From: a virus
Length of the DNA: 64,000 nucleotides
Reading direction: 5' to 3' (one strand)
IMG/VR virus record: IMGVR_UViG_3300033146_000946
Location: 32,001-96,000 of that record
The notes beneath the pieces are model-generated. The model was given only the letters and a program-made list of their open reading frames with translations. It ran no database searches and was not told the origin of the DNA. A program made the position numbers and the translations under genes. Each line of letters starts with the position of its first letter. Position 1 is the stretch's first letter. Of the stretch, positions 2,969-55,021 are shown piece by piece.

Positions 2969-3505
2969 ATGAATTTAACAAGACAAACCAAGTTATATAA
3001 ATCTACTTTTGATGATAAAGAAGTAATATATCGAACTTTAAATATAACTGAAATCAATGTTATTAATAATATATCTAATACTTATTATAAATATGATGTA
3101 GCATATGATCTAGCAGTAATTAATAAAGATGATGAAATCAATTATTTAATTAAACAACAAATTGGAAAAGATATTATTGAATCTTCAGCTTTATCTTTAT
3201 CTGACGATATGATATTATCTTTAACTGTTGATGGATTTAGAGAATCAGTTAAAAATGATTTTACTTTAACTCTAATTCCACAAATAATGAATGTATTAAA
3301 TGTTAATTTAGAATATCTACTATCTTTAACAATTGATGATTTAATTGAATTAACTGCTTTATGTGAAATTATGACTAATAAAAAAATATTTAAAGATATA
3401 GATATGCCAAAAGAAGATGTTGCAATTAAAAATGATAATCCACAATTTTTTCCAGAAGATGGAAAATCATTACAAGATAAAATGAAAGAACTAGAAGGTT
3501 TTTAA
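2969..3505 (+). CDS. Second tail assembly chaperone-like protein (paralogue of 2436-2738)
   Basis: DDKEVIYRTLNITE resembles SDLEIIYKPLSRND. AAGGAG RBS. TAATG overlap with the next gene. Confidence 0.6.
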   Translation: MNLTRQTKLYKSTFDDKEVIYRTLNITEINVINNISNTYYKYDVAYDLAVINKDDEINYLIKQQIGKDIIESSALSLSDDMILSLTVDGFRESVKNDFTLTLIPQIMNVLNVNLEYLLSLTIDDLIELTALCEIMTNKKIFKDIDMPKEDVAIKNDNPQFFPEDGKSLQDKMKELEGF

Positions 3506-6500: not shown

Positions 6501-9500
6501 TATTGGTGGATTTGAATATGATAATTTCAGATATGGTACTGGTATGTCTGGTTCATTTAAATATCTTGCTAATACAGCTGGTAAAGTAGCAGCAGCAGCT
6601 TTTGCATATAAAGCTATTGATGCTGCAGTTGCATCAGCTCCAGTATTTGATCAAACTGGATTACAAGATGGTATAACAGGATTTTTAGCTGATAATGTAG
6701 CAACTACACATTTAATAGCATCTAAAGCATTAAATTTTACAGGTGTTGCAGGAGCAGGAAGGTATCTTGAAGGGTTAATGCCAGGATTTACATCATCTGC
6801 ACCAGGAGCATTGATTGGTGGTGCTCTTAGAATGGCTGGTGGACCAGGAGCTATGATTGGTGGTGCAATACATGGTGCTATTTGGAATCGAATGTTATCA
6901 GCATATATGCCAGATTTTACTAAAACATATGAACAATTACAAAAAGAATATTCAGGTGAAGAAGAAGTAGCTATTGTAGAAGGTAAAGGATGGTTATTAG
7001 GTACTACACCATTCCAAGGTAATAAAATAGTTGGTTATAAACCAAATTGGTATGTTGAAGCAAAATCAAGATGGAAAGCATCAGATACATTATATGGTTC
7101 TGAATTTAGAAAATTAATACATGAACCATTACCTGGAATAGGTGCTAATATTGGTGATATAATAGATCCATATTATATGGAACGAAAACATTTCTTCGAT
7201 AGGCCATATCCTGTTACTGGAGGATTTTTAGATGAAGTTCCAGTATTTGGTCCATTAATAGATGCTACGTTAGGAAAAATATTTAAACCTAAAAAATTAA
7301 TGCATCAGAAATTTTTAAATGGTGATTCATCAATTGAACATTCTGAAGTTACAGCTATGCCAGTTATACCAATGTCAGAACAATCAGTACATATGCGTAG
7401 TGCTTCACCAATGAAAACAACTAGTCGACATATTAGATCTAATTTTATGGGAGCATGGGTTTATCCAGGTGATCATGCTTCATCAGCACAAATGATAGCT
7501 GATGATTATATGGCAGGATTTGAAAATATGATGGGTTTAGTTGGTTTTGCTGGTGGTGTTGGTAGAACTAATTTAGTAGAACATGAACGTGTAGTTCCAA
7601 CATTAGAAACTGCTGGTAGAATGGCATCTATGACTAGAAGTTATAATGATATGGCATTGGGAGGAATAGGTACTTTATCTGAAGCAATGAGACGTTTTGT
7701 AGGTAAACCAGACCATAGAAAAGTCGGTGTTAATCCAATTCCAAATATGCTTCCAAACTTTCTACCAGGTAGATTTTTAACTGGTGATCCATATGAAAAA
7801 ATAATGAAAGGTGAATTAAGATTACCTGGTACTGCTTATGAAAGAACACATGATATTAATTATGCTATGCCAGGTCGTGCTTCAATGTTCGGTGGTAATT
7901 TAAAAGATATCGTTGCATATTTTACTGGACATAAATCACCATTATTAAAAGAAGAACATGATATATTGGAATATGGTACACATGCTCACGAAGCTATTCA
8001 AAATTGGCTTAAAGCTGAAAATATATTAATATCTGCTGAAAATTTAGTATATGATACAAGAAATAATGTGTCTGGTCATATTGATGGTGTAATTCGAGAT
8101 GGTACAGGTGGTGGTGGTAGAAGAGCTCTTGAAATAAAAACTATATCAGCTAAAGGTTTAAAGAAATTATCAGGACCAAAAAATCAACACGTTGGACAGT
8201 TAAATTTTTATCTTCATGAAATGAAGATGAAAAAAGGTACAATATTATATGTTAATAGAGATAATCCAGCTGAGTTTAAAGTATATGAAATTAATTATAA
8301 TCGAGATAGATATACAAAAGATTTACAAAAAATACATCAAGCTAGAAAAATAGCGTCTGGTATGATAGCACAATCTAAAACGGGTATATCTAAAGGTTTT
8401 AGTTATTCTTGGACAGATAGATTAAATATATTAGCTGACGTTGCGCCAGCATCAAAAGAATTCAAAGAAGCAAAGTGGATAGTTGAACAACAGATAAAAA
8501 ATGGAATGATGGATGAACGTGGAATGAACAAATATAGAAAAGCGTTAAAACATCGACAAGCTACTTTGAGAACTTATGAATTATATCCTACTAGATTTAG
8601 AGGACAAATATTATCACCTGATGCTGAATATAATAGACAAAATGAAAATTATAATATAAAAGCAGGAGCAGAATATAGTTTACCAGAAAGAATAGTTGGA
8701 GCAGTTTGGGAAGAATTTTTAAATACAAATACATTTTTAACTAATAAGTTTTTTGCATTTAAAGATCCATTAGAACATTATTCAGAATATCAAGTATACG
8801 GAAAAGAATATACACCATGGACTGATCCTTATGGTTCATTTGTAAAACCAAGAATAGATAGAGTATTAGGATCAACTGATCCTTTTAAAGGAGCAATAGC
8901 AGGTTCTATTGATGGAGCATATTTATTTGGTGGTAGTCCAATGGCAGCAGTTGGAGCATTTGTAGGTGCTGCTGTTGGTGGTGTTAATGGAATCATGAAA
9001 AGACAACAAAGATGGCTACCTGGAAATATTAAAACTGAAAGACAAATTAATGATTATTTTGATACGTTAGAATATTATAAAAATGAAAGAATGGCAACTT
9101 TGAGTTATGGTATGGAATATGATAGATATAAAAATGCAGCTAATGCTACATTCCATAGTTTAATACAAAATGAAAGTACGGATTATACTAATATATATAG
9201 ATCAGCTTATACGTCAGAAAAACCATATCTATCTGCCTGGTTAAATGAAACTAATCCTGAACGACAAGAAGAAATTTTAAAAATTGTTCCTGAACGATTA
9301 GGAAATGTGTTAGTTAGTCATTGGCAAAAAGAAGGATCAAAAGTTAATACTGAAGATCATATTGATAAAATGTCAGCAGGTTTATTACAAAAACATAATC
9401 CAGAATATGATATGAGAATGTTAGATCCAATGTTACGAACAGAAGATATTAAATTAAAAGCTATTAATAATGCTGGATTAAATGCTCATGATTTTGGATT

Positions 9501-9786
9501 AGGTTGGGCTCCACAATTATTAAGAGCACAAGATGCGATGGATAGAATGCCAGATCCAAATATTAATCAAATTAATTTTAATGAAAATAATGCAGATATG
9601 ATGGATCCAGGTACAGTAAAAGGAGCAATAATGAATATGTTACATTCGATGGGATTAAAAGGTAGAGTTACAGTATTTATAAATAATCATGTAGATGGTG
9701 GATCAAATAAAGCAACTATAACATTACAGCATAATAGAGTGCAAGAAATTCGTGATGCTGTTGATTTTAGAGAGAGGTATATGTAA
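3505..9786 (+). CDS. Giant tape-measure/ejection-type virion protein with embedded PD-(D/E)XK (Cas4/RecB-like) nuclease domain
   Basis: Follows the chaperones. Has Gly/Ala-rich hydrophobic segments (GALIGG..GAMIGGAIHG; AAVGAFVGAAVGG). Nuclease motifs GTHAH, GHIDG, LEIKT and QLNFY at about 7975-8211. Confidence 0.75.
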   Translation: MSHYDPYQDNNDSYYNPQSNVNNKESVVHSIGSAIGETAKSLVGQLIVHTVVKSVGKLAGRGIANAQRSRATMRLKQKNLSSSQRSMYQRLSKAETFTDVLSARSKTFDRVRTNAWRQKSKNILEKRENVYNRLKTRNPIGAEAYKVKSAFKNSDTFMAVAMHNVGESILEGSIIGYAYDAATGQLGHMGVRDDLSTWNLPGHAVNYAKYMVKNAVNFGVMGNLGNIKRFGQAGAANVGKNFLKHNKGFEDAVLGFASKVSNVRYKGAMKHGSDTDYKAQAFQHEINDSLLKKVKDNVGAALSTYTDTIAPMMHESLHKPFQRKPTKTPQPTATQSAVKFQDKVKHGLDQVKNSFEHKRNERANRLSKDVDKGGFAIADVLSDMGARSNNQSVLTQHGNSKQAIDEMLMNQKSSRGFLAQMFGLQQTSLKDTLTKDKIADIAHGISKFTDTKEEMLIRQLGNVKVGNTFFKKGKFNVDMNYMNPLNVVKRGMANILQSNAKMLYKLPMVGKSLSLGAITMSDTILGTEYNAFSFNNTGTGFGFVVGTKGGPKQIDDLLREPGILKQGSNTSGVNVHMVNDKLYAIDGATITKLDSYNVAIKETSPASKSLSEMKKHDMEEYLYQNAKNTVPTSKSEAIAAYANNIKKQRDGLGFFGKLSAAVSWDKLSSSNAMQGLKEIFNMKIMPNGQVHSVKQQLYDQMVGSFYGKDPIFNKQEMMSVGRTMLESTEHHLANVINRPHVIKQLAERSSGFMNKNNLGWMWDDTEFVQLLREGRAPNGVIDKDFYKTFLSDDESKALYHTVIQNPRRAKKHITRDRVGARPDLDALTQLRTKFAMNGLGKVEGVDRMLSGADFLHRQGLISHSEATAMKLHGKLNTMFAKSKTYFGELDPEIVDLTEMQKLFKGKKDGVIIKQNELLDYVMQDEMRKPSLVYSKARLADTLYRNPDAPMFGLARDTTQAIGISYKSDSDKNMAMGLKVLNVGANRVSHLVSDTFNAVGIGGFEYDNFRYGTGMSGSFKYLANTAGKVAAAAFAYKAIDAAVASAPVFDQTGLQDGITGFLADNVATTHLIASKALNFTGVAGAGRYLEGLMPGFTSSAPGALIGGALRMAGGPGAMIGGAIHGAIWNRMLSAYMPDFTKTYEQLQKEYSGEEEVAIVEGKGWLLGTTPFQGNKIVGYKPNWYVEAKSRWKASDTLYGSEFRKLIHEPLPGIGANIGDIIDPYYMERKHFFDRPYPVTGGFLDEVPVFGPLIDATLGKIFKPKKLMHQKFLNGDSSIEHSEVTAMPVIPMSEQSVHMRSASPMKTTSRHIRSNFMGAWVYPGDHASSAQMIADDYMAGFENMMGLVGFAGGVGRTNLVEHERVVPTLETAGRMASMTRSYNDMALGGIGTLSEAMRRFVGKPDHRKVGVNPIPNMLPNFLPGRFLTGDPYEKIMKGELRLPGTAYERTHDINYAMPGRASMFGGNLKDIVAYFTGHKSPLLKEEHDILEYGTHAHEAIQNWLKAENILISAENLVYDTRNNVSGHIDGVIRDGTGGGGRRALEIKTISAKGLKKLSGPKNQHVGQLNFYLHEMKMKKGTILYVNRDNPAEFKVYEINYNRDRYTKDLQKIHQARKIASGMIAQSKTGISKGFSYSWTDRLNILADVAPASKEFKEAKWIVEQQIKNGMMDERGMNKYRKALKHRQATLRTYELYPTRFRGQILSPDAEYNRQNENYNIKAGAEYSLPERIVGAVWEEFLNTNTFLTNKFFAFKDPLEHYSEYQVYGKEYTPWTDPYGSFVKPRIDRVLGSTDPFKGAIAGSIDGAYLFGGSPMAAVGAFVGAAVGGVNGIMKRQQRWLPGNIKTERQINDYFDTLEYYKNERMATLSYGMEYDRYKNAANATFHSLIQNESTDYTNIYRSAYTSEKPYLSAWLNETNPERQEEILKIVPERLGNVLVSHWQKEGSKVNTEDHIDKMSAGLLQKHNPEYDMRMLDPMLRTEDIKLKAINNAGLNAHDFGLGWAPQLLRAQDAMDRMPDPNINQINFNENNADMMDPGTVKGAIMNMLHSMGLKGRVTVFINNHVDGGSNKATITLQHNRVQEIRDAVDFRERYM

Positions 9787-12700
9787 TGCCAATAACTGAA
9801 ATTTTAGGTGAAGAAATTGAAAATGATAATGATAGAGTAAACTGGTTTGGTAGAGTAATGGTTGGTGGTATGTCTGTTTTAGGACTTGTTGCTATTGCTA
9901 ATAAGATTGGTGGTCCTACAGGTAAAGCTATAAAATTATCAGTTGGTGATCAATTAGAAGAAGAAGTAATAGATGCTGTTAATAAATATGGAAGACAAGC
10001 TGATAAATTAAAATCACCAAGTAGTTTAAAACATAAATTACCAATTAATGGAAAATTAGAAGTAGTTGGAAAATTACCATCAGAACAAGCAATTTCTAAA
10101 TTTGAACGTGTAGTAAATTCTCAAGATAAAATAAACAAAATGATGGAGACACCAACATCATTATATAATAAAATACATGAACTTGAGCGTTCTATTTCTA
10201 CTGTTATTAATGGTGTTGAAAATGGTGATCCTATGATGAAACAGATTAACGCATTACATGGAATAGTTTCAGCTAAAGTTAGGACAAAAGATGCTAAATC
10301 TGATGCTAATAATTATTTATTAATGGCAACCAAAATAAATGCAATGAGAGATTATAGTACTACTGATGTTAAAGGTGAATTAGCACAATATTTAGATGAA
10401 GATATCTGGTATGATAATTTCTTAACTGAAATGAAACCATCTGATATGATTAAATGGAATCAAAATAATGAAACTTTAATAAAAAGTGATACATCATATG
10501 CTAAAAAATATTATAAACAATTACAAAATTTAGAAAAAGAAATTTTAGCTAATAAAATTGCTAGTTCTGCTAATAGTAATAAAGCATTAGAGCTAACACA
10601 TAATAAATTATATGTAAAAGATGCTTTTATGCCTGTTGGTGATTTATTAAATGATGCAGCAGGTTATGTAATAAATGTTACTAATAAATCTATCGAATTA
10701 TTTTCATCTGATTTTAGTAATAATAAAATGAGTGTTGGAGAAATAAAACAAGTAATCGATAAATCTATATCTAAAAACGTTGGATTAAAATCACAATACG
10801 GATCAGAATTAAGTGATATAGCTCATTTATTAGATCAATTTAAAACTATGAGTAATGGTAAAATTACTAATGTTAAAATGACTTATAAAACCACAGAACA
10901 AAGAGGTGTTGAAAAAGCATATGTTGTAATTAATATAGATAGAAAATATGGAAATAATAATACTAGATCATTTTCTATGAATATACCATTAGTTGATAAA
11001 TTTAATATTGTACCAGATATAACTAATACATCACATTTTGGATATGGTGTTGCAGGTATAATAGAATCATTACCAGGAACAAATAAACCAGCTACAGCAA
11101 TAGATATATCTACTTATTATATGAGAACTGTTAAAGATATGTTAACTCAATCTATAATGAGTGAGGTATTATTTACTGATGAAGAATCATTTAATGATGT
11201 ACAAAAAAAATTAAGAAGACCATTATTAGCAATTCAAGATCAATTAAGTGCATTAAATGGTGAAGCTAGAGATATTTTTGCTACAGGAATGTATATACCA
11301 AAAACGCATTTAGATTTAATTGCTGATAAAACAGGTAGTAAAAAAAGACAATTAGCTGATGGTGCTAAAACAATAATAAATATGTTTAATGATAGTAAAA
11401 GAAATACTAATAATGATGTATCTATTGTTTTAGACTTAGAAACAATTCAATTATTAGGAAATGGTTCAGGAAGATATATGTCTGTAAGAAATACTACTTC
11501 AATTTGGTCTGTAGGTTTTTCTATTTTTAAAGGTAATGAATTAATAGATGGTGATCAGATTTCTTCTATGCATGCTTTAAAAGAGCATGATTTATTACGA
11601 GCATATGAAGTTGATAAAGTTGATAAAGGATATATAGCTAGGATGATTGATGAAAATCCTAATATCCGTAAATTTGCTAGATTTGCACAGAAAACAGTTG
11701 GCGGTTCAACTGGTGATGATTCAGTAAGTTTAGCTATAGCATTAAAAAAACATATAGAAATGGTACTAGATGAATCAAACGGATCATTATCTAAAGTAAC
11801 AACAATGCCAGGTATGGGAAATTTTTCAAGTTCAGTTGAATTTGCTCAATCTTTTGTTAAAATGTTGAAAGCTAAAATACGAGATTTACAAGATACTTTA
11901 CAACCAGGAGCAAAGATCACACTTGAAACTGCAAATGGTACTGATTTCGATATAAGATTATTAGAAACATTAACTGGTGATATGGGTTCTATAAGAGATA
12001 TGGTTGAATTTAAAGATATAACTAATGTAAGTAGAACTATGAAATTTGGTAAAAAAGGTATGTTAGGTGATCAGTTAATGCATATCGTTAACCAGTTAGC
12101 ATGGGATCAAGGATATGATAAAGAACATTTTAATGTAGAAGCTAATCCATTAGAAGCATTAAAACAATTACAAAAGAATGGATTAATGAAAACTAATAAA
12201 AATGGTGGTGATATATTAAAATTTGTTGGCGGTAAAATAAAAGGTAATATGGGTTTACATAATTCAGCATTATTAGATACTGTAATGACAAAAGCTGCAG
12301 TTATATTAGCTGAGAATGTAATTGCTAAAGATACTAGTCATGTAGATAAAGCATATGAAATTTTAAATTTATTAGAAAAATATCAAAGAAAAGATTATGA
12401 AGCAACTATTGCTGATTATATGGAATCATCTTTAGGAGTAATAAATGGTAAACAAGTAACTAAATCTGGTATTAGTATGCAACATCGTGTTGATAATTAT
12501 TATACACATTTTAACGTAGCTGATGTTATGCCATTATTAGCAAATAATCCAGTATCTAAACAAGCAAATCAATATTTAAGACATGGTTGGTTTCAAAAAA
12601 ATGTTAAAGCTGCATATTGGCGATATGGAAAAATGATTACATCTCCAATAGAAGAAGTAGCTACAGATTTAGCATATAGAACTACAGGATTTGATAAAAA

Positions 12701-15700
12701 TAGATTTGCTAATAAAGTTATATTAAATACAGCATATACAATTGGTGGATATGGTATGCAATCTGGATATAGTGCTATACCTAAATTTATAGATGATGAA
12801 TTTGATCAAATGTTATATAATCAAAAACGAGTTCAATTTAATTTTGCTGATACTGATTTTCCAGATGCATCTATGTCTAATACTATTAGAGAAGTATATG
12901 ATAAAGCTATGGTTAGAGCTCGTAAAATGATGAGTGATAAAGGATTAGGTCCAGTTAAAAGTAAGCATAAAATATCCAAAAGTGTATTAGAAGAAGCATT
13001 TAGAATAGAATTAGGAAATATACAAAATAAAGAATCTTTGATATTAGATCCAGAAAACCCAATACATCAAAATATTATGTTTGGTGATGGTAAATTAAAT
13101 ATTAAACAAAATACTCCAGGAAAATTAGTAGGTATTGAATTAGGTGGTGATATTAATAATGATAAACCAGCTTCAATGTTATTATTATTTGATTATAAAT
13201 CTTCTTTAAATTTACAGATAGATCATTTACCAGATAATAAATCAGTTGTTACTAAATTACAACATGTAGATCAAGAAGTACTTAGAACTATGGGTAGAAA
13301 ATATACACATGGATTAATTGAATCACAAGTAGATATGCGTACAATAGAAAAAGGATATACTGGAGAATTACAAAGAAAAGCATTATTAAAAATAATAGGA
13401 CATGTTAATAAAATAGGTCATATTGGGTCATCAGATGCATCTAAGAGAGTATGGACTGATTCAGAAAAATTTGCATCTGATAAAATAATGAAAAAAGTAA
13501 TATCATTGTTTAAAGAAAAAGCTGCAACAGATGGTATGCATGTTGGATCTATTGATGAAGAAAATGGTTTTAAATCATTTATATTTGGTGCATTAAAACC
13601 AGGAACAGTAGATGTTAAAGAACAAATGAATATGTTATCTACTATTAAAATGTCGGATATTATGGATATATTTGGTGAAGCAGGTGGTGATCTCATACAT
13701 GATTATAAAAGTTTAAAAGAATATTATGGTTTATTTAGTAATGATGGTATAATTGAAACTGCTCATAATATCGATTCAAAATTAGTAGCTAAAGGCTTTT
13801 CAGAAAAAGGTACAAAAGAAGGAGATTTATTAGAACAAATGTTAAATATGGATGATACTATAAAAGAAAATAAAGCATTAATAAATCCATTTCAAGCAGC
13901 TGCTAATAAATATAATAGAAAGCATGGTGATAGTGCATTACAAAAAAAATTACAAGGATACATTGATGCTAATGATTTACAATCTGCTGATAATTTAATT
14001 AAGAAATTAAAAATTGGAAAATTATTTCAAGCAGTAGGTGATATGAGTGCAGTTAATAGAAATATTATGGCTGGTAAAACTGGAGATGAAAGGTTTGATA
14101 AATTAATGGGTATTGTTGTTCCTACTATTCATCACTTTAGTGATTCTCAATCTATGAAACAAAAACAAGTTAATAAAACTATTAAATTTCGAGCTAATTA
14201 TTTTGATACAATTTTTCATGAAAATTATTTACCAGAAAGAGTAAAACAAGTATTAGCATCAAGTCAAGGTTGGAAAGCTGACAAAGCAGGTTTAGATTTA
14301 GTTAAAACATCTCGTGCAGTTATAGACATGTTTAAAAATAATAATCTTAGTAAATTAATGACTAATTATAGTTTAAATCAACAACAAATGTTAGATATCA
14401 TTGGTAATCCACTAACTAATAAACAAATAGATAGAGCATTAGAAAGATTAAGTTTAGCTGATGGTAAAAGTTCAAAGAGAAAAGCTGCTATAATTAGTGA
14501 AGTAATAGATAGTATTAAAAAAACAGGAACAACTATATCATTAGAAGAAGAAGAAGAAATAAGATCTAGAAGTATTAATTATTTTAAAGATAAATTGATT
14601 GCAACTAAAAACAGACCTTCTTCTTTATCAGCTACCGAAGCATTACATGTAATATCTTTAAGTGAAGATCAAAATGCTAAAGTAGTTGGTTTAAAATTTT
14701 ATGAATATAAAGAACTTGATAAAGATACAGGAAAATTAGTATCTAAAGTTATATCAAAAGAAACTAGAGCTAAATTAATTAAAAAAGGTATTAGTAAAGA
14801 TCAATTCAAATCATGGGGTGGACAAATTAGATTTGATTTAGAAGATATGATATCTAGATTGAATGAAAAAGAATCTGATCCATTTAATCTACGTCAATTT
14901 ATTGATCATTTTTCACATCTTAAAAATACACCTGGTCGTGCTGATAATAGAATCTTTAATGTCAAAGAAGTTAATGGTAGAAAAATAATTGAAATGAACG
15001 CATTAGTTATGCCAATGTTTAGTGATATTAGAAATGTATTCAATCAAATTGGTGATGTTGAAGGTTATGGTGTTGCTACAAAAGAATTTAAATTAATGCA
15101 AGAAGTCGCTAATGGTTTAAAAGATTATGCTAATTCCTTTATTGATGGTAAAGGTAATAATTCTATGAATAATAGAACTGGTGACGACTTAGCTTTTAAC
15201 TATTTCCAAATGTTAGGTGGAATTATGAATTTTGGAAAAGATTCACAATTATTTGATGCTGTTAAAAAATTCCATTTAGTAGGTAGTAGACATACATATG
15301 GTGTAAGTGATCAACATGTATTATTAGCACAATATACCTTAAAAGGAATAGATGGTAAAAGTACTGGTTCAAAACAAAGAATGTTAGATTTTTTCAAAAA
15401 AAATAATATGGATGCTTCACAACAAAGTGCATTTATGGATCAGATAAGAAGTGTAGCTTTATCTGATGGACATACAGCATTAGTAAATGCTGAAGATTTT
15501 TTTGGTGATAATATAAAAGTAAATACAGGTAATGGTAAAAGTATGACTTTTGGTCAAATGTTATCTGATGCAAAAGCTAATGATAAACATTTATATAATG
15601 AATTATTAAAAATTCAAAATGGTAGAGCAACTATGCCAGGTTTCACTGGTAGATATCCTATCCCATCAGCTGGAGAACTTGGATTATCTATGGTTAATAT

Positions 15701-17291
15701 TTTAGGTCTTAGTAGAGAAGTGATGGATTTTTTAGGTATGAGTACTGATATGACATATTTTAATTCTGTTATAGCTGAAGCTCGTAAAGCTGATACTGAT
15801 GGTGATGAAACTGAGTTAATGCAATTAGGATATAGAACAATCGAACATTTAAATGAAATGAGAGCAGCAACAAAAGAATCACATGCTAGAACTGTAGGTA
15901 GTCATGGACTTCAATATCTTATTAATGAATATAATAGAAGTGGTGCATTAATAGGTAAGGAAATGAAAGGTGGTGTAGAATATTATAAAGTTGGTAAATT
16001 AGCACCTAATGGTTCAATGATTGAAGAATTAGTTACAAAAGATGAATATTTTAATAAATTTGATTCAGGTATATCTAAAAATTTTAAAAAAATTCTTAGT
16101 CAAGACTGGATAGAAGGAACTAATATACATAATATAGCAAATGGTGTAGAACGTCATTTAGCAACAGGTGAAATTGGTACAGCTGCTCAATCATTAATTG
16201 GTTTAATTTCTAATACGATGAGTGAAAGAGTAAAAGATTTACATCGTTTAAATAAAATACTTCCTGATAATGTTCCAACTGATATAAACTTTTTGGATTC
16301 AATTCAATCAATAAAATTTGGTATGGCTAATATGCATCAAACTGCAATTGCTATGGGTAAACATAATACGTTTGAAAAAGCAATAAATTTAGCACATGCT
16401 ATTGGTTTCTGGGAATCAAAAGTTAATAATAAACAAGCTTCACGAGAACAAGTTCAAGCAGCTGAAAAAGCATGGATGCATAATTTTTATGATGATTGGG
16501 ATACAAAAAAATTAAATCCATATTGGGAAAAAAATGACGAAACAAGAGCATTTGTTCAAAAACAACAAGACTTATTTAATACTTTTAAAACTGCTATGCC
16601 ATTTATAGATCAAGTTTATAAAAAAGATCCACAAATAGGAAGATACTTAAAAAATGAAAGCGATTTATCTAGTGGTAAAATGGGAACAGATATTACTGCT
16701 GCATTATGGAATGAATCTATGGATCATGGTATTTATGATGATGCTATATCTCATATTAATTCATCAACTCGAGAAGCAACAGCAGAATTAATTCAACATG
16801 TAATAGATAAACAAAGTGGTGATTTTAAATATGATAATGGACCTACAAAACGAAGTAAAGCTTTTAATCATTTTTATACTAATAATAATATACATGTTAA
16901 AAATGCAATGATGCATGGTGGTAAATTTGCAGCTTTTGGTATGTTAGCAGTTGCAGCATTAAATATGTTTAAACCTATGGCTGGTACTGGAATTGATGCA
17001 CCAGGTGTACATAATAATTTTACTGCTAGTGAATTACAATTAGATAGAAGAATAGCTATAGATCAAGTTGATGCATCTTTTAGTAAAGAAGCATTTGCTT
17101 ATATGAATGATCAAGATTCAACTGCTAGAGAAAAAAAATCATTATATGGTGCTACACAATTAGCAATATATGATAATTTAATTAGACCAGAACCTACTCA
17201 TAAACAATTTAGAAGTAATCTTAATATACAACAGATAAATAGAATGACTTATATTGGTCCATTTGGTAATTCTAATTTTGATAGTAGGTAA
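9786..17291 (+). CDS. Giant virion protein: DEDDh (DnaQ-like) exonuclease fused to putative single-chain two-barrel RNA polymerase
   Basis: Exonuclease motifs LDLET (11430), NGTDFD (11934) and HNSALLD (12258). Beta'-like GRYP (15648) followed by ARKADTDGDE (15780-15809). Weaker beta-like motifs at 12519-14200. Confidence 0.72.
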   Translation: MPITEILGEEIENDNDRVNWFGRVMVGGMSVLGLVAIANKIGGPTGKAIKLSVGDQLEEEVIDAVNKYGRQADKLKSPSSLKHKLPINGKLEVVGKLPSEQAISKFERVVNSQDKINKMMETPTSLYNKIHELERSISTVINGVENGDPMMKQINALHGIVSAKVRTKDAKSDANNYLLMATKINAMRDYSTTDVKGELAQYLDEDIWYDNFLTEMKPSDMIKWNQNNETLIKSDTSYAKKYYKQLQNLEKEILANKIASSANSNKALELTHNKLYVKDAFMPVGDLLNDAAGYVINVTNKSIELFSSDFSNNKMSVGEIKQVIDKSISKNVGLKSQYGSELSDIAHLLDQFKTMSNGKITNVKMTYKTTEQRGVEKAYVVINIDRKYGNNNTRSFSMNIPLVDKFNIVPDITNTSHFGYGVAGIIESLPGTNKPATAIDISTYYMRTVKDMLTQSIMSEVLFTDEESFNDVQKKLRRPLLAIQDQLSALNGEARDIFATGMYIPKTHLDLIADKTGSKKRQLADGAKTIINMFNDSKRNTNNDVSIVLDLETIQLLGNGSGRYMSVRNTTSIWSVGFSIFKGNELIDGDQISSMHALKEHDLLRAYEVDKVDKGYIARMIDENPNIRKFARFAQKTVGGSTGDDSVSLAIALKKHIEMVLDESNGSLSKVTTMPGMGNFSSSVEFAQSFVKMLKAKIRDLQDTLQPGAKITLETANGTDFDIRLLETLTGDMGSIRDMVEFKDITNVSRTMKFGKKGMLGDQLMHIVNQLAWDQGYDKEHFNVEANPLEALKQLQKNGLMKTNKNGGDILKFVGGKIKGNMGLHNSALLDTVMTKAAVILAENVIAKDTSHVDKAYEILNLLEKYQRKDYEATIADYMESSLGVINGKQVTKSGISMQHRVDNYYTHFNVADVMPLLANNPVSKQANQYLRHGWFQKNVKAAYWRYGKMITSPIEEVATDLAYRTTGFDKNRFANKVILNTAYTIGGYGMQSGYSAIPKFIDDEFDQMLYNQKRVQFNFADTDFPDASMSNTIREVYDKAMVRARKMMSDKGLGPVKSKHKISKSVLEEAFRIELGNIQNKESLILDPENPIHQNIMFGDGKLNIKQNTPGKLVGIELGGDINNDKPASMLLLFDYKSSLNLQIDHLPDNKSVVTKLQHVDQEVLRTMGRKYTHGLIESQVDMRTIEKGYTGELQRKALLKIIGHVNKIGHIGSSDASKRVWTDSEKFASDKIMKKVISLFKEKAATDGMHVGSIDEENGFKSFIFGALKPGTVDVKEQMNMLSTIKMSDIMDIFGEAGGDLIHDYKSLKEYYGLFSNDGIIETAHNIDSKLVAKGFSEKGTKEGDLLEQMLNMDDTIKENKALINPFQAAANKYNRKHGDSALQKKLQGYIDANDLQSADNLIKKLKIGKLFQAVGDMSAVNRNIMAGKTGDERFDKLMGIVVPTIHHFSDSQSMKQKQVNKTIKFRANYFDTIFHENYLPERVKQVLASSQGWKADKAGLDLVKTSRAVIDMFKNNNLSKLMTNYSLNQQQMLDIIGNPLTNKQIDRALERLSLADGKSSKRKAAIISEVIDSIKKTGTTISLEEEEEIRSRSINYFKDKLIATKNRPSSLSATEALHVISLSEDQNAKVVGLKFYEYKELDKDTGKLVSKVISKETRAKLIKKGISKDQFKSWGGQIRFDLEDMISRLNEKESDPFNLRQFIDHFSHLKNTPGRADNRIFNVKEVNGRKIIEMNALVMPMFSDIRNVFNQIGDVEGYGVATKEFKLMQEVANGLKDYANSFIDGKGNNSMNNRTGDDLAFNYFQMLGGIMNFGKDSQLFDAVKKFHLVGSRHTYGVSDQHVLLAQYTLKGIDGKSTGSKQRMLDFFKKNNMDASQQSAFMDQIRSVALSDGHTALVNAEDFFGDNIKVNTGNGKSMTFGQMLSDAKANDKHLYNELLKIQNGRATMPGFTGRYPIPSAGELGLSMVNILGLSREVMDFLGMSTDMTYFNSVIAEARKADTDGDETELMQLGYRTIEHLNEMRAATKESHARTVGSHGLQYLINEYNRSGALIGKEMKGGVEYYKVGKLAPNGSMIEELVTKDEYFNKFDSGISKNFKKILSQDWIEGTNIHNIANGVERHLATGEIGTAAQSLIGLISNTMSERVKDLHRLNKILPDNVPTDINFLDSIQSIKFGMANMHQTAIAMGKHNTFEKAINLAHAIGFWESKVNNKQASREQVQAAEKAWMHNFYDDWDTKKLNPYWEKNDETRAFVQKQQDLFNTFKTAMPFIDQVYKKDPQIGRYLKNESDLSSGKMGTDITAALWNESMDHGIYDDAISHINSSTREATAELIQHVIDKQSGDFKYDNGPTKRSKAFNHFYTNNNIHVKNAMMHGGKFAAFGMLAVAALNMFKPMAGTGIDAPGVHNNFTASELQLDRRIAIDQVDASFSKEAFAYMNDQDSTAREKKSLYGATQLAIYDNLIRPEPTHKQFRSNLNIQQINRMTYIGPFGNSNFDSR

Positions 17292-17301
17292 TATATTAAA
17301 G

Positions 17302-17315
17302 ATACTATACTATAT
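17302..17315 (+). promoter_or_regulatory. Candidate phage-specific promoter motif ATACTATACTATAT
   Basis: Third copy of the 14-mer, upstream of the AAGGA RBS and ATG 17333. Confidence 0.5.
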
Positions 17316-17332
17316 TCAAAAAGGACTATAAT

Positions 17333-17506
17333 ATGAGTATAATAGAAACTAATATCGTAGTAGATATAAATGACCCAAATGTAACACCACAAATAATAGC
17401 TCAATTAGAATCAATATTATCAAGTATAAATGGTAAACCCGTGGAAGTTAATGTAATAAATATGGATGATCCCATATCTATGAGTCCATTAAATTATAAA
17501 GTATAA
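17333..17506 (+). CDS. 57-aa hypothetical protein (not in ORF track)
   Basis: MSIIETNIVVDINDPNVTPQ...LNYKV*. AAGGA RBS at 17321. Fills the gap between two giant genes. Confidence 0.7.
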   Translation: MSIIETNIVVDINDPNVTPQIIAQLESILSSINGKPVEVNVINMDDPISMSPLNYKV

Positions 17507-17517
17507 AGGTAAAATAT

Positions 17518-20500
17518 ATGGCATATATAAACGCTAAAAATGTAGAACGAGTATATCATCCAAGTCAATTAACAACATTATTATATAGTATGATTGATAC
17601 CCTTAAAACAGATATTAAATCTAGTTTTAAGATTCCAGGTACCGTATCTACTCGTCATAAATATGATACCGTTTTATCATATGGTAAATATACATCATCC
17701 TTAGAAAAAGTAAAATATAAAGTATCATTTTTACCAGGACATTTAAATTTAAATACATCTAAAGTATCATTTTTACCAGGACATTTAAATTTAAATACAT
17801 CTAAAGCACACACATACGCTTTAGATGTTATCAGTAAATTATATACTGACACATTTAAATTAAAAGTAAGTGATTTCGTATATCAAAATAATCCAGATGT
17901 TGGAACTTTATTAGAATCAAAAGGACGTGGTTTACAACCAGGAGATATTTTATTAGCTAGAGCTTATAGTTCTACTAATAATTCAGAATATATAGATTAT
18001 TTAACAATAGTAATAGAAGCAAATGATGGAAATTTAGTTACTTTTCCAGAATTATATAAAAATAATGCTGATTTATTTAATATTAAATTTATTAGACAAT
18101 ATACTATTACAAAACCAAGTAAAGAATTAGCTACATTAGCTGGAAATACAGGTCATTTATTTTATCAATATAAAAATACATCTAAATTATCCGCTGAAAT
18201 TATTAAATCTACTAGATTAAATGTTGATGGTTATTTACAAATTGGTGATTTAAAATTCTTAGTAGCACCACAACAATTATCTTTTAGTACACAAAATGGT
18301 TATCAATATTTTCCTACTATAAGAACCAATGGTAATCCGAATATTCCAACTGCTCAAGAAGCAAAACAAGTTAATATAACTTTAATATTTCCAAATGTTG
18401 ATTCAATTAATAATCAATTATTACCATTATTTGCTATGTTTAAACGAACACCATTTGTTAATGTTTATAATAAAGATATAAGTATGTTTTTTAGTGAATT
18501 AAAAGATGAAGAGGATTTTGTATCTTTTGCATTAGAAGATTTATATATACAAACAATTAAAGGATTTCCAAATACTCTACAAGCTAATATTACAATATTA
18601 CCATTTCAAAAAGAATCTTTTGGTTCTGCTTTTAAAGCTTTAAAAACATTTGATGATGTAAAATATAAACAAGTTGTTGAAGATTTTAGAACAAGTAGAA
18701 TAGATAATATAGTTGAAAATATTCAAAATAGATTAAATGATAATAAAGAAATTTATGCAACTAATATTTTTAGAAAAGTAAAAGGACCATATTCAAAATA
18801 TGGTTTTAGATTAACTAGTGATTTCACATTAAGTGAACCATTTAGAGCATATTATCAAGGCCTATTAGCATATCGAACTGTAGTAGAAGATGAATTAGGA
18901 AATATTGTTAAGAAATCTAATAGAGAACCTATATATATTGAAGCATTTAGACCAAAAAAAGCAGCCAATCTAATACATAAATATGTAGCTGAACATAATC
19001 AAAATAGACCTATTGTAATGAATTATAGTTATATTGATGAATCAGTTCGAGAATTTAGAAAAAAGATGAATGATCAACAACAAGAAGCTAGACGTAAAGT
19101 AGCTAAACAAACTAGAAGTGCTAGAGAAATGTTTGAAGCAATTGGTGACACATCATTTAATGAATCTTTAAATACAGTAATTCATACTAGACAAGATTTT
19201 TTTGATTCTATATTAGCTACTTATCAATTTTCATCTTTTGATAATTTCTTTTCAAGAGTATTAGTACAATATGGAGTTGAAGTTCATTCTGATAATGATA
19301 TTGAAAAGATATCTGGTTATCTGGATTTATTATTTAAATATTTAAAATTTGGAGTAAAAGTTGATAATGTATCTTGGAATGATTTAGAAGGTGGATTTAA
19401 TTTAGTATTTGGAAATGCTTTTAAATTAGTTAAAAGTAAATATTCATTTAAAGGTGAAGCTAGGGATCAAATAGATTTATTAACAGGATTTACTTTAATT
19501 GATACTAAAACTAATAAAGAAGTATCTACTAAAGAATTTACAAATAATTTATTAACAAAAATTCAAAAATTATATGTTAATATTAAAGATGAAAAAACTA
19601 AATCTGTTATTGCTGCATTTTGGGATAGTATATTTAATACTATTTCTAGTGGTGGAGATGTCGTAGATTTAAATACCTTTATGTTTAAAAATTTAGATGG
19701 AATATTAAGATCAAGTATTACAATAGATAATGTTAATGATATAATAGAAGGTTGGTCTATTTCATATTCTAATAAACTTATACCAATGCAATTATTAGGA
19801 TTTAAATATCCATTTTATCAACATATTGGATCAAATAATATTAATGTTCAATTATCTATTACTTCTTTACAAAATGGACGTAAAGTTGGATTAAAAGATG
19901 AATTTTCAATATTAAATGATAGATTACAACGAACAGCTAAAATAATATTAATGAATATGCCAGAATTATTAAAATTGTATAATTATACAGTATCATTAGA
20001 CACAGTACCACTTGGTAATATTTTTTCTATTTTTGGTTTAAAACAATTAGTATTTAATAATTCTAATGTTAGTAATATTCCAGGTAAACCAAACGCTTGG
20101 GCTATTACTGTTAATTTTACTCAAGATTTATTAACAATACGAGAATATCAATCAATTGATCAAGTGCCTAATACTTTTGGATTTGCTCCTGAAATTGCAA
20201 ATAAATTAATACGATCTAGAATTATAACTGAAGATAATGATCCTAGTGGTTATGCAAAAGGTGATGTTGTAGTTTATGATTTACAATTAAAAAAGACCCT
20301 GAAAGATAGTGATATAGATTCTGTAGATCCTTCTAAATTTGATCAATCGATTTTATCAGTTCTAATGCCAAAAGAAGATTATACAAAATCAGCTGTATCA
20401 GCTGCTGTAGAAGCACAAGATAAAATTGATAAAAAACGATTAGGACCTATTCAACATGGAGATGAAACAACATATATATCAGAAATAAATAATTTATTTA

Positions 20501-23500
20501 TATACTACTTTGCCTTATTAAAACAAAAAACATTAGCTAAAAAAAATGATATAGATTTATTTAAAGATGATGTAATAAAAGTAACACAAAGTGATGGTAC
20601 TGTTGTAGAACAAAAATTTAATTTTAAAAGTAATGATCAAATTTTAGAAGCATTTGAATTAGTTCCTAATAAAATTGAATCAAAAAAATTAAAAAAAGTT
20701 TTTGATAATAGTGATTTTTTTAGAGATTCATATAAAGGTCTATTAGTTGAAATAGATACATTATATGAGACCAGTGCTGGTATAATGTTAAAAGCATATG
20801 AAGATATTGAAGTAGATCCTCATATTTTTATTGCTGAAGCAATGATGTCTGTTGGTTTTTTTGGGGTAGTAGGTGCTGCATTATTAGGATCATTAGCAGT
20901 TATGACTGGTGGTGTAGCTTTATTAGCTGGTGGTATGGTTATAGGAATGGTTGGTATTACATTAGATCAAAATAAAAAAGAATCAATAAAAGCTACTATT
21001 AGAAAACACCATTCTTTATTAAAAAATATTTTAGATAATATAACATCAAAATATATTAGAGATATATCTAGAATAATTTTACGAGATCCACCAATAATTA
21101 AAGCTTTATATAGTGAAGAATTATATACTGATGTTATGACTATAATCAGAACTGCAGGTATAAATTGTTATAAAGATTTTGATATTAGATTAGATTCATT
21201 AAATGTTTTAAATGGTGAAACATTACAATTTAGTCCAGAATTTTATCTATTTAATAAATATGATCTTAATACTAAAAAAGATGAATTTATTAAAGATCAA
21301 TTGAAAAATAAAATATCTGCAGCTGAAATACAAAGTAATATGATTTTGAAAGAAACAACCGAAGTATTAGATATGTTAAGAAATATTAATGATGAAGTAT
21401 TTAAAGATGATGCTACATTTTTTACTCAAATTAAAACTGATTTAAATTATATAAAAAATAATTCTACATCAAGTGATCCTAATAGTTATGAAATGGATTA
21501 TGATGAATTATTTAAAAAAATAAAAAATGTTTATGGTAAAATTATAGAAGAATATTCAGGTGTATCTAAATATAAAATGATTAATGGTAAAAAAGTTGTA
21601 ACGTCAACTACTAATGGTATTGATATAGATTTATTAAAATTTAATTTGTTAAATACCGCTCGAATGAAACGAGCAATTGAATTAAAATTAATACAAAATA
21701 CTATTAATGATTCATTAAATGCAGATAATCCAGATGATAAGACAACAGATAAATCTAATAAGAAAAATACTTTAGACGCTTTAACTGAAATGGGTATAGC
21801 ATTAGAATCTATGGATAAATATAAAAATTATATTAAAAAATATTTTGAACAATATGTATCTACTGTTGAAATACAATGGAATCCAGATTTATATAAAGGT
21901 GAACTACAAAGTGAATCTTTTAAAACTGCAAAAGAATTAAAAAAAGAAAAAGAAAAAAGAATAAAAGAAGATAAAGAAAAATTATATAATCCAGATGCTA
22001 AACATGGCTCTATTACTAATTTTGAAATTAGTATTTATACTAGATTATATCAATTATATCTTTTAGATTCAGCAATTAAAGATGCAGTTGCTAATGAAAA
22101 AATACCATCTGATAAATATGATTTGTCAGATATTCCAGAATTACAATTACTCAAATGGTATGGTTTTAGATCAGCAGAACAATCAGTTAAAGATATAGAA
22201 TTCCTAGAAAAACTATATCATAGTGATCTTTCACAACAAGCAAAAGGTATGAGAAAATTATTTCCTACTCAAAAAATTTATTTAGTTGAAGAAGATAGAC
22301 ATACATTTAAAAATTTAGATGATTATTATTCTTATGATGCTATTCAATCGATTGATATAGTTTCTAATAAATATTCTGCTGGTAAAACTGCTGTATTGAG
22401 ATTAGGAAATATATATAATAATATAACTGATAAAATAAGTTTGATGACAGAGCGATTAACAATAGAAGAACGTAGTCAATTAAATACAGATAATGTGTTT
22501 ATGGGAACGTTAGATGTTAAACCTGGTACTAAAATTATTATTAAACAAGGTTACGATGCTAATGATAAATTTTTACCTGTTGTATTTATTGGTAAAATAG
22601 TAGATATGAGACCAGGTCCTGTAACAGAAATTATAGCACAAAGTTATGGTACACAATTAAATCATTATATTGAAAAATTAAATTTTGGATTTAAATCTTC
22701 AGCAAATGAACATGGGGATGTAGCTATAACTTTATTAGATCAAATGTTTGGATCTGATGGTCTAGGTAAGATAGATCCTATGAATATAAGAAGAAATTAT
22801 TTTACAGGAAAAAATTTATCAAAAATGAGAGAAAATTCATTTTCTAAGTTTTTAATATCTAATATTTTATCAAGAGTAAATATAGGATTATTTGCAAATG
22901 ATAATCCTCGCGATGATAATATCTTTTTACCAATGAGAATATTAGATTCTATTATGGATCATGTAACATTTGACTGGAGAATATATCAACAAACTATATG
23001 GCAAGCATTACAAGAATTAGCTCTATATCATAAAAATACTTTTCCAATGGTAAAATTATATAATTATGATGGTTTATCTAATTTAGATGAAATACGTGAA
23101 ACTGTTATTATAGGTAATAAAGCTGGATATTATAAATATACTGATGCATTTGGTTTGAGTTCTATAAATTATGCTGCTATTAAAAATGCTCTTGAAGAAT
23201 GGAATGATATTAAAGATGATGTTGTAGATGTATTAAAAACTATTACAAATTTTAGAGCAGTTAATGATACATTAGTAAAATTTTATGCTCATATAGCATT
23301 TCCAATGACTAATTATAAAGGTTCAAAAGTTAAATTTAAAACATTAGTTGATTCTAATTATATTAAAACATTTGATGTACCTGGTGATAATAAAAATGAT
23401 CCACAACATGTTGGAATAGAACATACAACTAAATCTAAAAAATTATCAAAAATATTAAATAATAAATATTTAATATTAATGTTAGTTAAAAAATATTTTG

Positions 23501-25197: not shown

Positions 25198-25211
25198 ATA
25201 GGAGAATTTAA

Positions 25212-26030
25212 ATGGAATATAAAGATACAAATAGAAGTACAAAAATGATAATAGCAGAAATTGCTGATGAAAATTATTTTAATAATTTTCAGAATATTAT
25301 TAGAATTAAAATAAAAGAAACACATGGAACTAATCCAATATATAAATATTATGATTTTCCATTATTATATAATGGAGAATATCCTAATCCTATATTGCAT
25401 AAAGTTTTAATATTCACATATGATACTATTTTAGATAAAATGTCAGAAGGTATGTTACAAAGTGATGAATTATTAAAATATCCTCCTGGATATAGAAATG
25501 AAGATGGATTATTATCTAATATTTCTAATGGATATTGTGTATTACTTAATCAACGTATAAAAAATAATGTAACTGCTACAGCTATAGGTGATGCTGATGG
25601 TTTTAATTCAGATGCTAAATTGGCATCTAATAAAGATGAAATACGTTATTCATTTTCACCTTCATTAAATTATGACTATACTACTACTGAGAACGAATAT
25701 AATGGAAATAAAAATTATGATAATATTGGAATATTTATAACAGATAATAGTGTTAAAATAAAATCAAGAGGTGGAGAGATAGTAGTTGGACCTGATGGAA
25801 TATCGTTAAGAGGACAAAAATCAGAAACACATCAAATTGATTTAGCTGGTTTAATAATGAAAAATCCATTAGCACAAATATTTCCAGAAACATTATTAAC
25901 TTTTCCATTATCTATAAAGAATATTCCTAATTTAAATCAATATATAGAAATTGGAAATTCGGTAAAACGAATAGCTGCTTATGCACAAGCTGCAGGAAAA
26001 GTTGTTACTATTATAAAAAACGTGGTGTAA
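25212..26030 (+). CDS. Baseplate central spike-like protein (GpV/gp5-type position)
   Basis: Lies between hub and wedge genes. Short beta-strand repeats IGIFITDNSVKIKSRGGEIVVGPDGISLRG. Confidence 0.5.
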   Translation: MEYKDTNRSTKMIIAEIADENYFNNFQNIIRIKIKETHGTNPIYKYYDFPLLYNGEYPNPILHKVLIFTYDTILDKMSEGMLQSDELLKYPPGYRNEDGLLSNISNGYCVLLNQRIKNNVTATAIGDADGFNSDAKLASNKDEIRYSFSPSLNYDYTTTENEYNGNKNYDNIGIFITDNSVKIKSRGGEIVVGPDGISLRGQKSETHQIDLAGLIMKNPLAQIFPETLLTFPLSIKNIPNLNQYIEIGNSVKRIAAYAQAAGKVVTIIKNVV

Positions 26031-26032
26031 TT

Positions 26033-26536: not shown

Positions 26537-26553
26537 AATAAAAGGATAATTAT

Positions 26554-27816: not shown

Positions 27817-27827
27817 AAGGTTAATTT

Positions 27828-31903: not shown

Positions 31904-31912
31904 GAGATTATA

Positions 31913-33712: not shown

Positions 33713-33726
33713 TAAGGAATTAAATT

Positions 33727-35211: not shown

Positions 35212-35222
35212 TTGAGATAATT

Positions 35223-40713: not shown

Positions 40714-40723
40714 AGGTTTCAAT

Positions 40724-45704: not shown

Positions 45705-45707
45705 AAT

Positions 45708-47114: not shown

Positions 47115-47117
47115 TTT

Positions 47118-51890: not shown

Positions 51891-51892
51891 TT

Positions 51893-53243: not shown

Positions 53244-53266
53244 ATTATCTCCTTCGTTATGTTTGT

Positions 53267-55020: not shown

Positions 55021-55021
55021 A

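Follow-up and report, generated by a model that had tools for sequence, protein, structure and literature searches.

The window analysed here, i.e., bases 32001-96000 (64,000 nucleotides) of the 147,061-bp IMG/VR virus contig IMGVR_UViG_3300033146_000946 (25% GC; CheckV completeness 64%), encodes a giant protein of 2501 amino acids (aa), designated P0001, which is very probably homologous to the two-barrel RNA polymerases (RNAPs). The reading favoured here, and considered reasonably probable as a whole, is that P0001 represents a single-chain two-barrel RNAP of the beta/beta' lineage, which is embedded in a giant protein of the tail module and delivered by the virion. A fused beta plus beta' polymerase within this tail-region protein had been proposed from the letters of the DNA alone (hereafter the sequence-only reading), and this proposal is now supported by a structure search, by conservation across sixteen sequences and by gene position. 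Conserved residues and a predicted structure suggest that P0001 is probably an active RNA polymerase, while its delivery by the virion, to which the position of the gene points, is favoured with slightly more reserve. The source phage is AT-rich, carries contractile-tail genes and is jumbo-sized, its complete relatives being 219-230 kb in length.

Predicted structure of the central region of P0001

A model of aa 900-2099 was generated with AlphaFold2 from a 16-sequence slice of the family alignment and without templates (mean predicted local distance difference test score (pLDDT) 67.9; predicted template modelling score (pTM) 0.44). When this model was compared by Foldseek with 350,542 PDB chains, all fifty listed matches were large subunits of RNA polymerases, and both kinds were represented, i.e., beta' subunits (E ~1e-3, ~540 columns) and beta/Rpb2 subunits (probability 0.97-1.0). 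A control comparison independent of Foldseek, in which the model was aligned by VIA-align to 48,161 representative PDB chains and the best fifty were listed, returned just nine chains with a Z score of at least 8. All nine are second-largest RNAP subunits that align with aa 901-1459, i.e., those of PhiKZ (Z 14.1), Pol IV, Xanthomonas (beta), Pol I, African swine fever virus, AR9, vaccinia virus, the plastid enzyme and Pol III, while the highest-ranking non-polymerase chain reached a Z of at most 5.3.

The beta-like module thus delimited is equivalent to residues 660-1242 of Escherichia coli beta and to chain C of the non-virion RNAPs (nvRNAPs) of phages PhiKZ and AR9. It aligns with PhiKZ nvRNAP chain C 6-580 at Z 14.9 (root-mean-square deviation (rmsd) 4.5 Å, 272 aligned residues), with E. 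coli beta 660-1242 at Z ~14 (rmsd ~4-5 Å, 256-325 aligned), with Pol II Rpb2 704-1054 at Z 13.5 (rmsd 4.4 Å, 276 aligned) and with AR9 nvRNAP chain C 9-540 at Z 13.4 (rmsd 4.5 Å, 254 aligned). The alignment ends (beta 660 = aa ~908; beta 1242 = aa ~1459) agree with two of the beta motif pairings proposed in the sequence-only reading, namely the first (to IPFLEHDD at 668 of E. coli beta) and the last (to LNHLVDDK at 1235). A double-psi beta-barrel (DPBB), here termed DPBB-B, lies within the module at ~aa 975-1456, where it is split by beta-rich inserts; this beta-type barrel matches VAT-N and a designed DPBB. The basic residues of the module are K925, K1152, K1189 and K1196; K1152 and K1189 are conserved and the first lysine of the ‘GDK’ motif is absent.

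The beta-like module is followed by a connector and a clamp-like helical region, which lacks zinc sites, since it contains no cysteines, and by a second, beta'-like barrel (DPBB-A). At VIA-align ranks 10-25, seven largest RNAP subunits align colinearly on aa 1493-2019, i.e., Drosophila Rpb1 21-487 (Z 6.4), human A190 (Z 6.2), the archaeal RNAP clamp 3qqc_A (Z 6.1, rmsd 5.3 Å, 168 aligned), Mycobacterium tuberculosis beta' 14-416 (Z 5.1, rmsd 4.1 Å), tobacco RpoC1 19-498, Schizosaccharomyces pombe A190 and Sulfolobus RpoA' 12-456. Several of these alignments stop at model residues 1104-1106, which correspond to D2003-D2005, that of Drosophila Rpb1 ending at residue 1104 (D2003) itself. Furthermore, generic DPBBs (a designed DPBB, VAT-N, Cdc48-N, NSF-N, Sec18-N and Pex1/6) match the model at two separate places, i.e., model residues 76-557 (aa ~975-1456) and 933-1104 (aa 1832-2003), the designed DPBB 7dww_A aligning with the latter at Z 5.3 over 76 of 86 residues. 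The model therefore holds a pair of double-psi barrels in beta-then-beta' order, the second of which ends at D2003. The absence of such a pair around DTDGD, or a DxDGD not conserved among homologues, had been named in the sequence-only reading as refuting, and neither was observed. The second barrel carries the conserved DxDxD loop, though its Z scores are low (4.4-5.3) and the pLDDT of the loop is below 50. Taken together, a beta C-half fold that extends beyond the barrel (Z 11.4-14.9) and a beta' clamp (Z 5.1-6.1) are found colinear in one chain. The sequence-only reading had regarded the beta' match as strong and the beta matches as weak; the structural comparison reverses this ranking, with Z 11-14 for the beta half as against Z 5-6.4 for the beta' half.

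A bridge helix and a trigger loop may lie within the ~370 residues that follow DPBB-A. In a separate model of aa 1750-2350, a helix of 45 residues contains an IGLxTNTxRxR motif, of which T2142 and N2143 are nearly invariant, and is followed by a helix-loop-helix element with the invariant residues Q2185 and K2192 (GKHG). In crAss-like phage phi14:2 gp66, the bridge helix and trigger loop lie ~165 and ~235 residues after the aspartate triad (10.1101/2020.03.07.982082), and the two elements of P0001 are placed similarly; by this analogy they are considered candidates only.

Conservation across the P0001 family

An exhaustive HMMER search together with IMG/VR loci yielded fifteen full-length homologues of P0001 (14-29% identity). 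Approximately ten full-length relatives (2349-2491 aa, 23-30% identity) were retrieved by HMMER from 1.84 billion cluster representatives, and five further relatives, on contigs of 63-230 kb, by a pattern scan of IMG/VR; all homologues are of metagenomic origin. Word-indexed searches were far less productive: one protein search returned the query alone, and the word-indexed homologue searches overall a single relative, P0002. In BFVD, an entry from Siphoviridae sp. ctnpt50 that bears the name ‘Minor tail protein’ aligns with the P0001 model over 1315 columns (E 5.5e-7), and relatives of P0001 therefore appear to be present, unrecognized, in public databases. No paper describing the family was found in a non-exhaustive literature library. 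The P0001 family is rare but real.

Conservation was counted in an alignment of sixteen sequences (P0001 and the fifteen homologues; mean column identity 30%) and, where indicated, in a smaller alignment of eleven. All eight motifs quoted in the sequence-only reading are present in the 2501-aa open reading frame (ORF) at the positions listed in Table 1. The putative Mg-binding aspartate triad, which had been described as intact, is indeed invariant: D2003, D2005 and D2007 occur in 16/16 sequences, the DxDxD pattern being retained throughout the homologues, and DTDGD is the sole DxDxD in P0001. Further invariant residues of this half are G1952, R1956 and P1958, followed by Q2185 and K2192, with G1946 being nearly invariant, as is K1818 in the eleven-sequence alignment. 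In the beta-like half Q929 and G994 are invariant and K1189, G1193 and K1196 nearly so, while the K1152 position is occupied by K or R in ten of the eleven sequences of the alignment block inspected. An additional invariant cluster, composed of D550, E552, H596, D722, D744, H825 and D831, precedes the polymerase module.

The E. coli motifs used for comparison were located at beta positions 668 (IPFLEHDD), 803-815, 1071, 1108 and 1235 (LNHLVDDK) in the fetched rpoB/rpoC sequences. By motif register, with no superposition behind the mapping, K925 would correspond to beta R678, K1152 to K1073 and K1189 to R1106. For the beta' half, the sole local hhalign match of the family profile to E. coli beta' 301-950 places kAD.DgD on NADFDGD, in support of the polymerase reading but with low probability (E 0.029).

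Genomic setting and other features of P0001

The ATG of the P0001 gene overlaps the TAA of the upstream gene for a 2093-aa giant protein (TAATG), and GAGAGAGG is located ~8 nt upstream of the start. Because of the order of the virion-module genes, in which terminase, portal, protease, capsid, sheath and tube-position genes precede, and baseplate genes follow, the giants (Table 1), P0001 is placed in the tape-measure/ejection-protein slot of a module with contractile-tail genes. The order giant, P0001 homologue, giant is observed in all six other contigs examined, one of which also keeps the small ORFs and the baseplate genes in place. The four giants of the contig (1691, 2093, 2501 and 2559 aa; contig 29307-57197) contain three cysteines in 8844 residues, compared to 0.74% contig-wide; P0001 itself contains none, and members of its family 0-3 per ~2400 aa. 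Two relatives, one complete (230 kb, terminal repeats present; CheckV 100%) and one nearly so (219 kb; CheckV 95%), possess one P0001 homologue each, and Pfam Rpb1_2/Rpb2_6 matches were not detectable elsewhere in these two genomes.

Table 1. Positions of P0001, its regions and motifs, and the surrounding virion genes (window coordinates unless marked as contig)
Feature	Residues or length	Position	Strand	Remarks
Large terminase		contig 9657-11474	+	
Portal		contig 14449-16326	+	
Protease		contig 16313-17860	+	
Major capsid		contig 18976-20286	+	
Tail sheath		contig 24583-27459	+	
Two paralogous tube-position proteins	225 and 341 aa	contig 27520-29294	+	just upstream of window
Giant protein	1691 aa	contig 29307-34382	+	
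Two small ORFs	100 and 178 aa	contig 34436-35505	+	
Giant protein	2093 aa	contig 35505-41786; window 3505-9786	+	
P0001 coding sequence	2501 aa	contig 41786-49291; window 9786-17291	+	single intact ORF, no internal stops
N-terminal hydrophobic segment WFGRVMVGGMSVLGLVAIANKIG	aa 20-42	9843-9911	+	also in closer homologues
DEDDh-like 3'-5' exonuclease motif set	aa 545-835	11418-12290	+	motifs only; directly N-terminal to polymerase module
Beta-like module	aa 901-1459	12486-14162	+	Z 11.4-14.9, 221-325 aligned residues (VIA-align)
ADVMPLLANN	aa 912-921	12519-12548	+	beta-like motif
VILNTAYTIGGYGMQSG	aa 978-994	12717-12767	+	beta-like motif
DNKSVVTKL	aa 1150-1158		+	beta-like motif with K1152
YTGELQRKAL	aa 1191-1200		+	beta-like motif
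MGIVVPTIHHFSD	aa 1441-1453		+	beta-like motif with H1449/H1450
Connector and clamp-like helical region	aa 1493-1829	14262-15272	+	equivalent to N-terminal part of beta'/Rpb1 (VIA-align)
GKDSQLFDAVKKFHLVGSR	aa 1817-1835	15234-15290	+	beta'-like motif
DPBB-A, beta'-like double-psi barrel	aa 1832-2008	15279-15809	+	invariant R1956-x-P1958; D2003-x-D2005-x-D2007 loop
GRYP	aa 1955-1958		+	beta'-like motif with R1956
FNSVIAEARKADTDGDE	aa 1992-2008		+	beta'-like motif with D2003/D2005/D2007
DTDGD, putative Mg-binding aspartate triad	aa 2003-2007	15792-15806	+	sequence motif, invariant
Candidate bridge helix	aa 2114-2158	16125-16259	+	45-residue modelled helix, IGLxTNTxRxR
Candidate trigger-loop helix-loop-helix	aa 2179-2210	16320-16415	+	Q2185, K2192 (GKHG)
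C-terminal hydrophobic segment (aa 2381-2399) and conserved tail		16926-17288	+	tail VNASFSKxAF ... IGPFGSS
Giant protein	2559 aa	contig 49518-57197; window 17518-25197	+	
gp25-like and gp6-like baseplate proteins		contig 58033-59816	+	

From its N-terminus, P0001 is composed of a hydrophobic segment, ~500 residues, a DEDDh-like motif set, the beta C-half, the clamp-like region, DPBB-A, ~370 residues, and a C-terminal hydrophobic segment with a conserved tail, the latter representing the best-conserved stretch of the family. The N-terminal hydrophobic segment is possibly membrane-inserting. The assignment of aa 545-835 as a DEDDh-like exonuclease is made at the level of motifs, i.e., D550-x-E552, N717..F721-D722 and H825-x5-D831, of which D550, E552, D722, H825 and D831 are invariant in the sixteen sequences and N717 is nearly invariant; the ExoIII-like motif is spaced Hx5D, compared to Hx4D in the DEDDh definition. 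Support for this region was obtained neither from Pfam searches with the sixteen members (one of which matched RNase_H_2 at E 0.05) nor from a PDB profile search, hhalign against E. coli DnaQ or a protein atlas search.

Several observations concern the neighbours of P0001. The 2559-aa giant adjoins the polymerase gene in all relatives examined, and its residues 2128-2362 match the 1954-position ‘endolysin’ PHROG phrog_20474 (E 1.4e-37). Residues 1483-1616 of the 2093-aa giant, a protein with zero cysteines, form a Cas4/PD-(D/E)xK nuclease domain (phrog_1706, E 1.5e-17). Both tube-position proteins match phrog_9206 (E 8e-40 and 6e-36), for which the annotation ‘major head protein’ is probably wrong. 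Outside the virion module, three group-1 glycosyltransferase genes (480, 383 and 371 aa; Glycos_transf_1, E 1e-8 to 2e-13) are located at 58808-62891 (+), downstream of a primase-helicase gene (55089-57518); possible targets of their products are DNA or a surface. PF00562 (RNA_pol_Rpb2_6), searched against the contig in six frames, returned nothing. A sub-threshold match of 16 bits to PF00623 (RNA_pol_Rpb1_2) in the 220-aa protein P0014 (54300-54959, +), which is without DxDxD, was dismissed as chance; a stretch of P0014, SAWGRALGNLGIG, presumably resembles single-strand annealing proteins. A T7-type polymerase model also found nothing on the contig, a result that is uninformative, as the same model was silent in control genomes.

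Alternative explanations and relation to known polymerases

A number of observations weigh against the reading of P0001 as a virion-delivered RNAP. No sequence method (Pfam, PHROGs, tblastn against phages, PDB profiles) ties P0001 to polymerases: PHROGs and tblastn against 50,697 phage records gave no match; Pfam and phmmer against PDB sequences gave chance-level matches (E 0.2 or worse), none to a polymerase; P0001 falls below every Pfam RNAP cut-off (PF00562, PF00623), the curated test of sequence matching; and profile hidden Markov models of five family-alignment slices (A3-A7) found neither polymerase nor nuclease among all PDB sequences. Likewise, hhalign gave no meaningful alignment between the beta-like family slice and E. 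coli beta 640-1342. The confidence of the model is moderate (pTM 0.44), and pLDDT falls below 50 precisely at the loops that carry R-x-P and DxDxD. For the beta' half the matches are weak (Z 5-6.4), and their rmsd rises to as much as 13-19 Å over long ranges. The separate model of aa 1750-2350 (pLDDT 63.5) returned mainly helical-hairpin noise together with weak DPBB matches, the polymerase and barrel matches being tobacco RpoC1 296-497 (Z 5.2), a designed DPBB (Z 4.8) and Pol I A190 479-656 (Z 4.4, rmsd 3.2 Å); it yielded no match beyond the triad, neither for a bridge helix nor for a trigger loop, in Foldseek against the PDB, in VIA-align (a wide search and a second look) or in the ESM Atlas, and a protein atlas search with aa 1990-2390 gave no usable match.

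Other points against that reading relate to residues and architecture. Of the two lysines that are universal in beta, the first (E. coli K1065; PhiKZ gp71-73 K386; PMC7618050) has no counterpart in P0001, as the sequence-only reading had already remarked: the position eight residues before K1152 is non-basic in P0001 and in P0002, the two rows counted. The counterpart of beta E813/D814 is not conserved in the family, and H1449/H1450, which had been put forward as beta-like motif residues, are not conserved among the homologues either. No equivalent of the N-terminal half of beta (the lobes) was identified in P0001, and the ~750 residues between the basic-residue motifs of DPBB-B and DPBB-A far exceed the ~140-residue connector of gp66/QDE-1. 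No promoter-like motif was apparent among exact 10-14-mers shared by the 21 longest intergenic regions, a search too crude to exclude one, and the packaging of P0001 is deduced from the position of its gene.

Four alternatives were considered. The negative outcome of all sequence-based searches, and a model built from a shallow alignment of sixteen sequences, might suggest a chance resemblance in which motifs and model are artefacts and no polymerase fold exists; this is very improbable, given that all nine chains with Z of at least 8, out of 48,161, belong to one protein family, that the alignment ends match independently proposed motif pairs and that the motifs are invariant across the family. 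A real polymerase fold may nonetheless be a catalytically dead relic that now serves as a structural, tape-measure-like or ejection-channel protein, and the missing first lysine, the lack of conservation at the equivalents of E813/D814 and H1237, the bridge helix and trigger loop unconfirmed by structure searches and the absence of a recognizable beta N-terminal half would all fit such a fate. At 14-29% identity, however, the residues that stay constant are few, and they are precisely those of R-x-P, the aspartate triad and the basic positions of the other barrel, a pattern that implies purifying selection on an active site and not on a scaffold; a dead relic is considered unlikely.

A slightly less unlikely alternative, though still a minor one, accepts a genuine two-barrel polymerase and disputes its delivery: P0001 may act inside the cell as a middle/late or as the sole phage polymerase, its gene merely being located in a structural block. 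The packaging of P0001 is deduced from gene position, and the P0001 homologue is the only polymerase-like gene found in the two complete or nearly complete relatives, and therefore might have to serve all gene classes. Against this, the P0001 gene is translationally coupled and its order with the two giants, between tube and baseplate genes, is conserved in seven contigs; P0001 shares with the neighbouring giants a near-absence of cysteine and hydrophobic ends; and a gene that is expressed alongside late structural genes can initiate its own expression only if its product has been imported. It is also improbable, and slightly more so than a dead relic, that the two barrels serve another chemistry, i.e., that of a DNA polymerase or primase-like enzyme whose proofreading exonuclease lies in cis (cf. 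archaeal PolD) or of an RNA-dependent polymerase. The DEDDh-like set, invariant in the family and directly upstream of the polymerase module, is in line with this notion, as are QDE-1 and plant RDR2 among the weak DPBB-B matches (Z 4.7-5.2). Yet the Z 11-14 matches span 220-325 residues of the beta subunit of DNA-dependent RNAPs, i.e., far beyond the barrel, and clamp matches are also present, while PolD is not among the best fifty VIA-align chains and the exonuclease assignment is itself motif-based.

Among known systems, the best structural matches to P0001 are chain C of the PhiKZ and AR9 nvRNAPs (7OGP/8QUE, Z 14.1-14.9; 7S00/7S01, Z 12.3-13.4; 247-273 aligned residues), which are likewise jumbo-phage-type enzymes of the beta/beta' lineage. 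As the match starts at the N-terminal end of chain C, the P0001 module (aa ~901) begins where the jumbo-phage beta is split. The PhiKZ and AR9 enzymes are composed of four to five separate polypeptides, with DFDGD on a separate beta'-N subunit, whereas P0001 combines these parts in one chain within a 2501-aa tail-module protein, shows no detectable sequence similarity to them and contains no recognizable beta N-terminal (lobe) part. They also keep both universal lysines, K386 and K394 (PMC7618050), the first of which P0001 is without. In a survey of 224 jumbo phages, the only two-barrel polymerases encountered were PhiKZ-type multisubunit sets and, in two phages, YonO-like enzymes (PMC7824862). 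With regard to the bacterial enzyme, E. coli RpoB 660-1242 and RpoC ~14-464 are colinear with P0001 for beta C-half, clamp and barrel, and R-x-P and DxDGD are common to both; P0001 differs in being a single chain with neither zinc sites nor the GDK lysine, and with no beta lobes identified.

Virion RNA polymerases inside giant tail-module proteins are already known, and the architecture of P0001 differs from those described. The virion RNAP (vRNAP) of N4-like phages is such a polymerase within a giant protein and has an unrelated fold. The gp66 protein of crAss-like phage phi14:2 (6VR4; 10.1101/2020.03.07.982082) is, similar to P0001, a single-chain two-barrel enzyme (2180 aa) with a DxDxD triad, whose gene stands among those of other giants in the tail region; it is packaged in the virion, and in it a beta-like barrel is followed by a connector, a beta'-like barrel, the bridge helix and the trigger loop. 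However, gp66 is nearest to QDE-1, its triad reads DFDID and its connector spans ~140 residues, as opposed to the DTDGD and the connector/clamp of several hundred residues in P0001, which additionally carries the exonuclease-like motif set, belongs to a phage carrying contractile-tail genes and is a far better match to cellular-type beta. The two-barrel polymerase of P23-45, gp96 (10.1101/2022.12.01.518664), also resides in a giant protein at the tape-measure position; it is fused to the tape measure, is delivered through the tail and has the order DPBB-B, connector, DPBB-A. There, the tape measure protein belongs to a siphovirus and is 5002 aa long, with the polymerase taking up its N-terminal ~1200 residues, while the polymerase of P0001 is central to C-terminal; P23-45 furthermore has a second, non-virion polymerase, whereas none was found alongside P0001 using Pfam models on the contig and two relatives. 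The sequence-only reading had named crAss gp66, YonO, P23-45 and bacterial RNAPs for comparison. The kinship of P0001 with two-barrel RNAPs holds, but multisubunit-type enzymes match best: QDE-1 was recovered with DPBB-B only (Z 4.7), and gp66, YonO and P23-45 are not among the best fifty VIA-align chains, an absence which does not exclude the gp66/QDE-1 lineage. In its predicted structure, P0001 is more similar to the multisubunit beta/beta' lineage than to crAss gp66, QDE-1 or YonO.

If P0001 is indeed a virion-delivered RNAP, then, by analogy with crAss gp66, P23-45 gp96 and the N4 vRNAP, it would be made late and built into the virion with its two flanking giants, would pass through the tail into the cell in a largely unfolded state, and would there refold and transcribe the first genes of the phage from its incoming DNA, independently of the host polymerase. 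The cysteine-free composition and the terminal hydrophobic segments fit translocation in an extended state and contact with a membrane, without proving either. A bolder proposal, which is conceivable and on balance rather doubtful, is that P0001 typifies an unrecognized lineage, i.e., a cysteine-free beta/beta' fusion that can pass in threaded form through a contractile tail, possesses a 3'-5' exonuclease of its own in cis and serves as the sole polymerase of a phage of ~220-230 kb; the exonuclease would then have the transcript or host nucleic acids as its target.

A phage that imports its own RNA polymerase does not depend on transcription by the host and evades host-directed inhibitors; to our knowledge very few such systems have been recognized, i.e., N4, the PhiKZ-like phages, crAss gp66 and P23-45 gp96. 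The P0001 family would add a fourth architecture for two-barrel virion polymerases, namely a fusion of the C-half of beta to the N-half of beta' within a tail-module protein of 2.5 kaa in jumbo-sized phages that carry contractile-tail genes, and it has been missed by current annotation, with Pfam and PHROGs being silent and one predicted viral structure bearing the label ‘minor tail protein’. The family bears on the minimal working beta/beta' core, given its lack of zinc sites, of the first lysine and of obvious lobes, on the passage of so large an enzyme through a tail, and on the kinship of single-chain and split phage polymerases to cellular ones. Should P0001 prove to be the sole polymerase of its phage, its infection would proceed from start to finish without the RNA polymerase of the host, and should the exonuclease in cis be real, P0001 would be the first case of a dedicated exonuclease domain built into an RNA polymerase.

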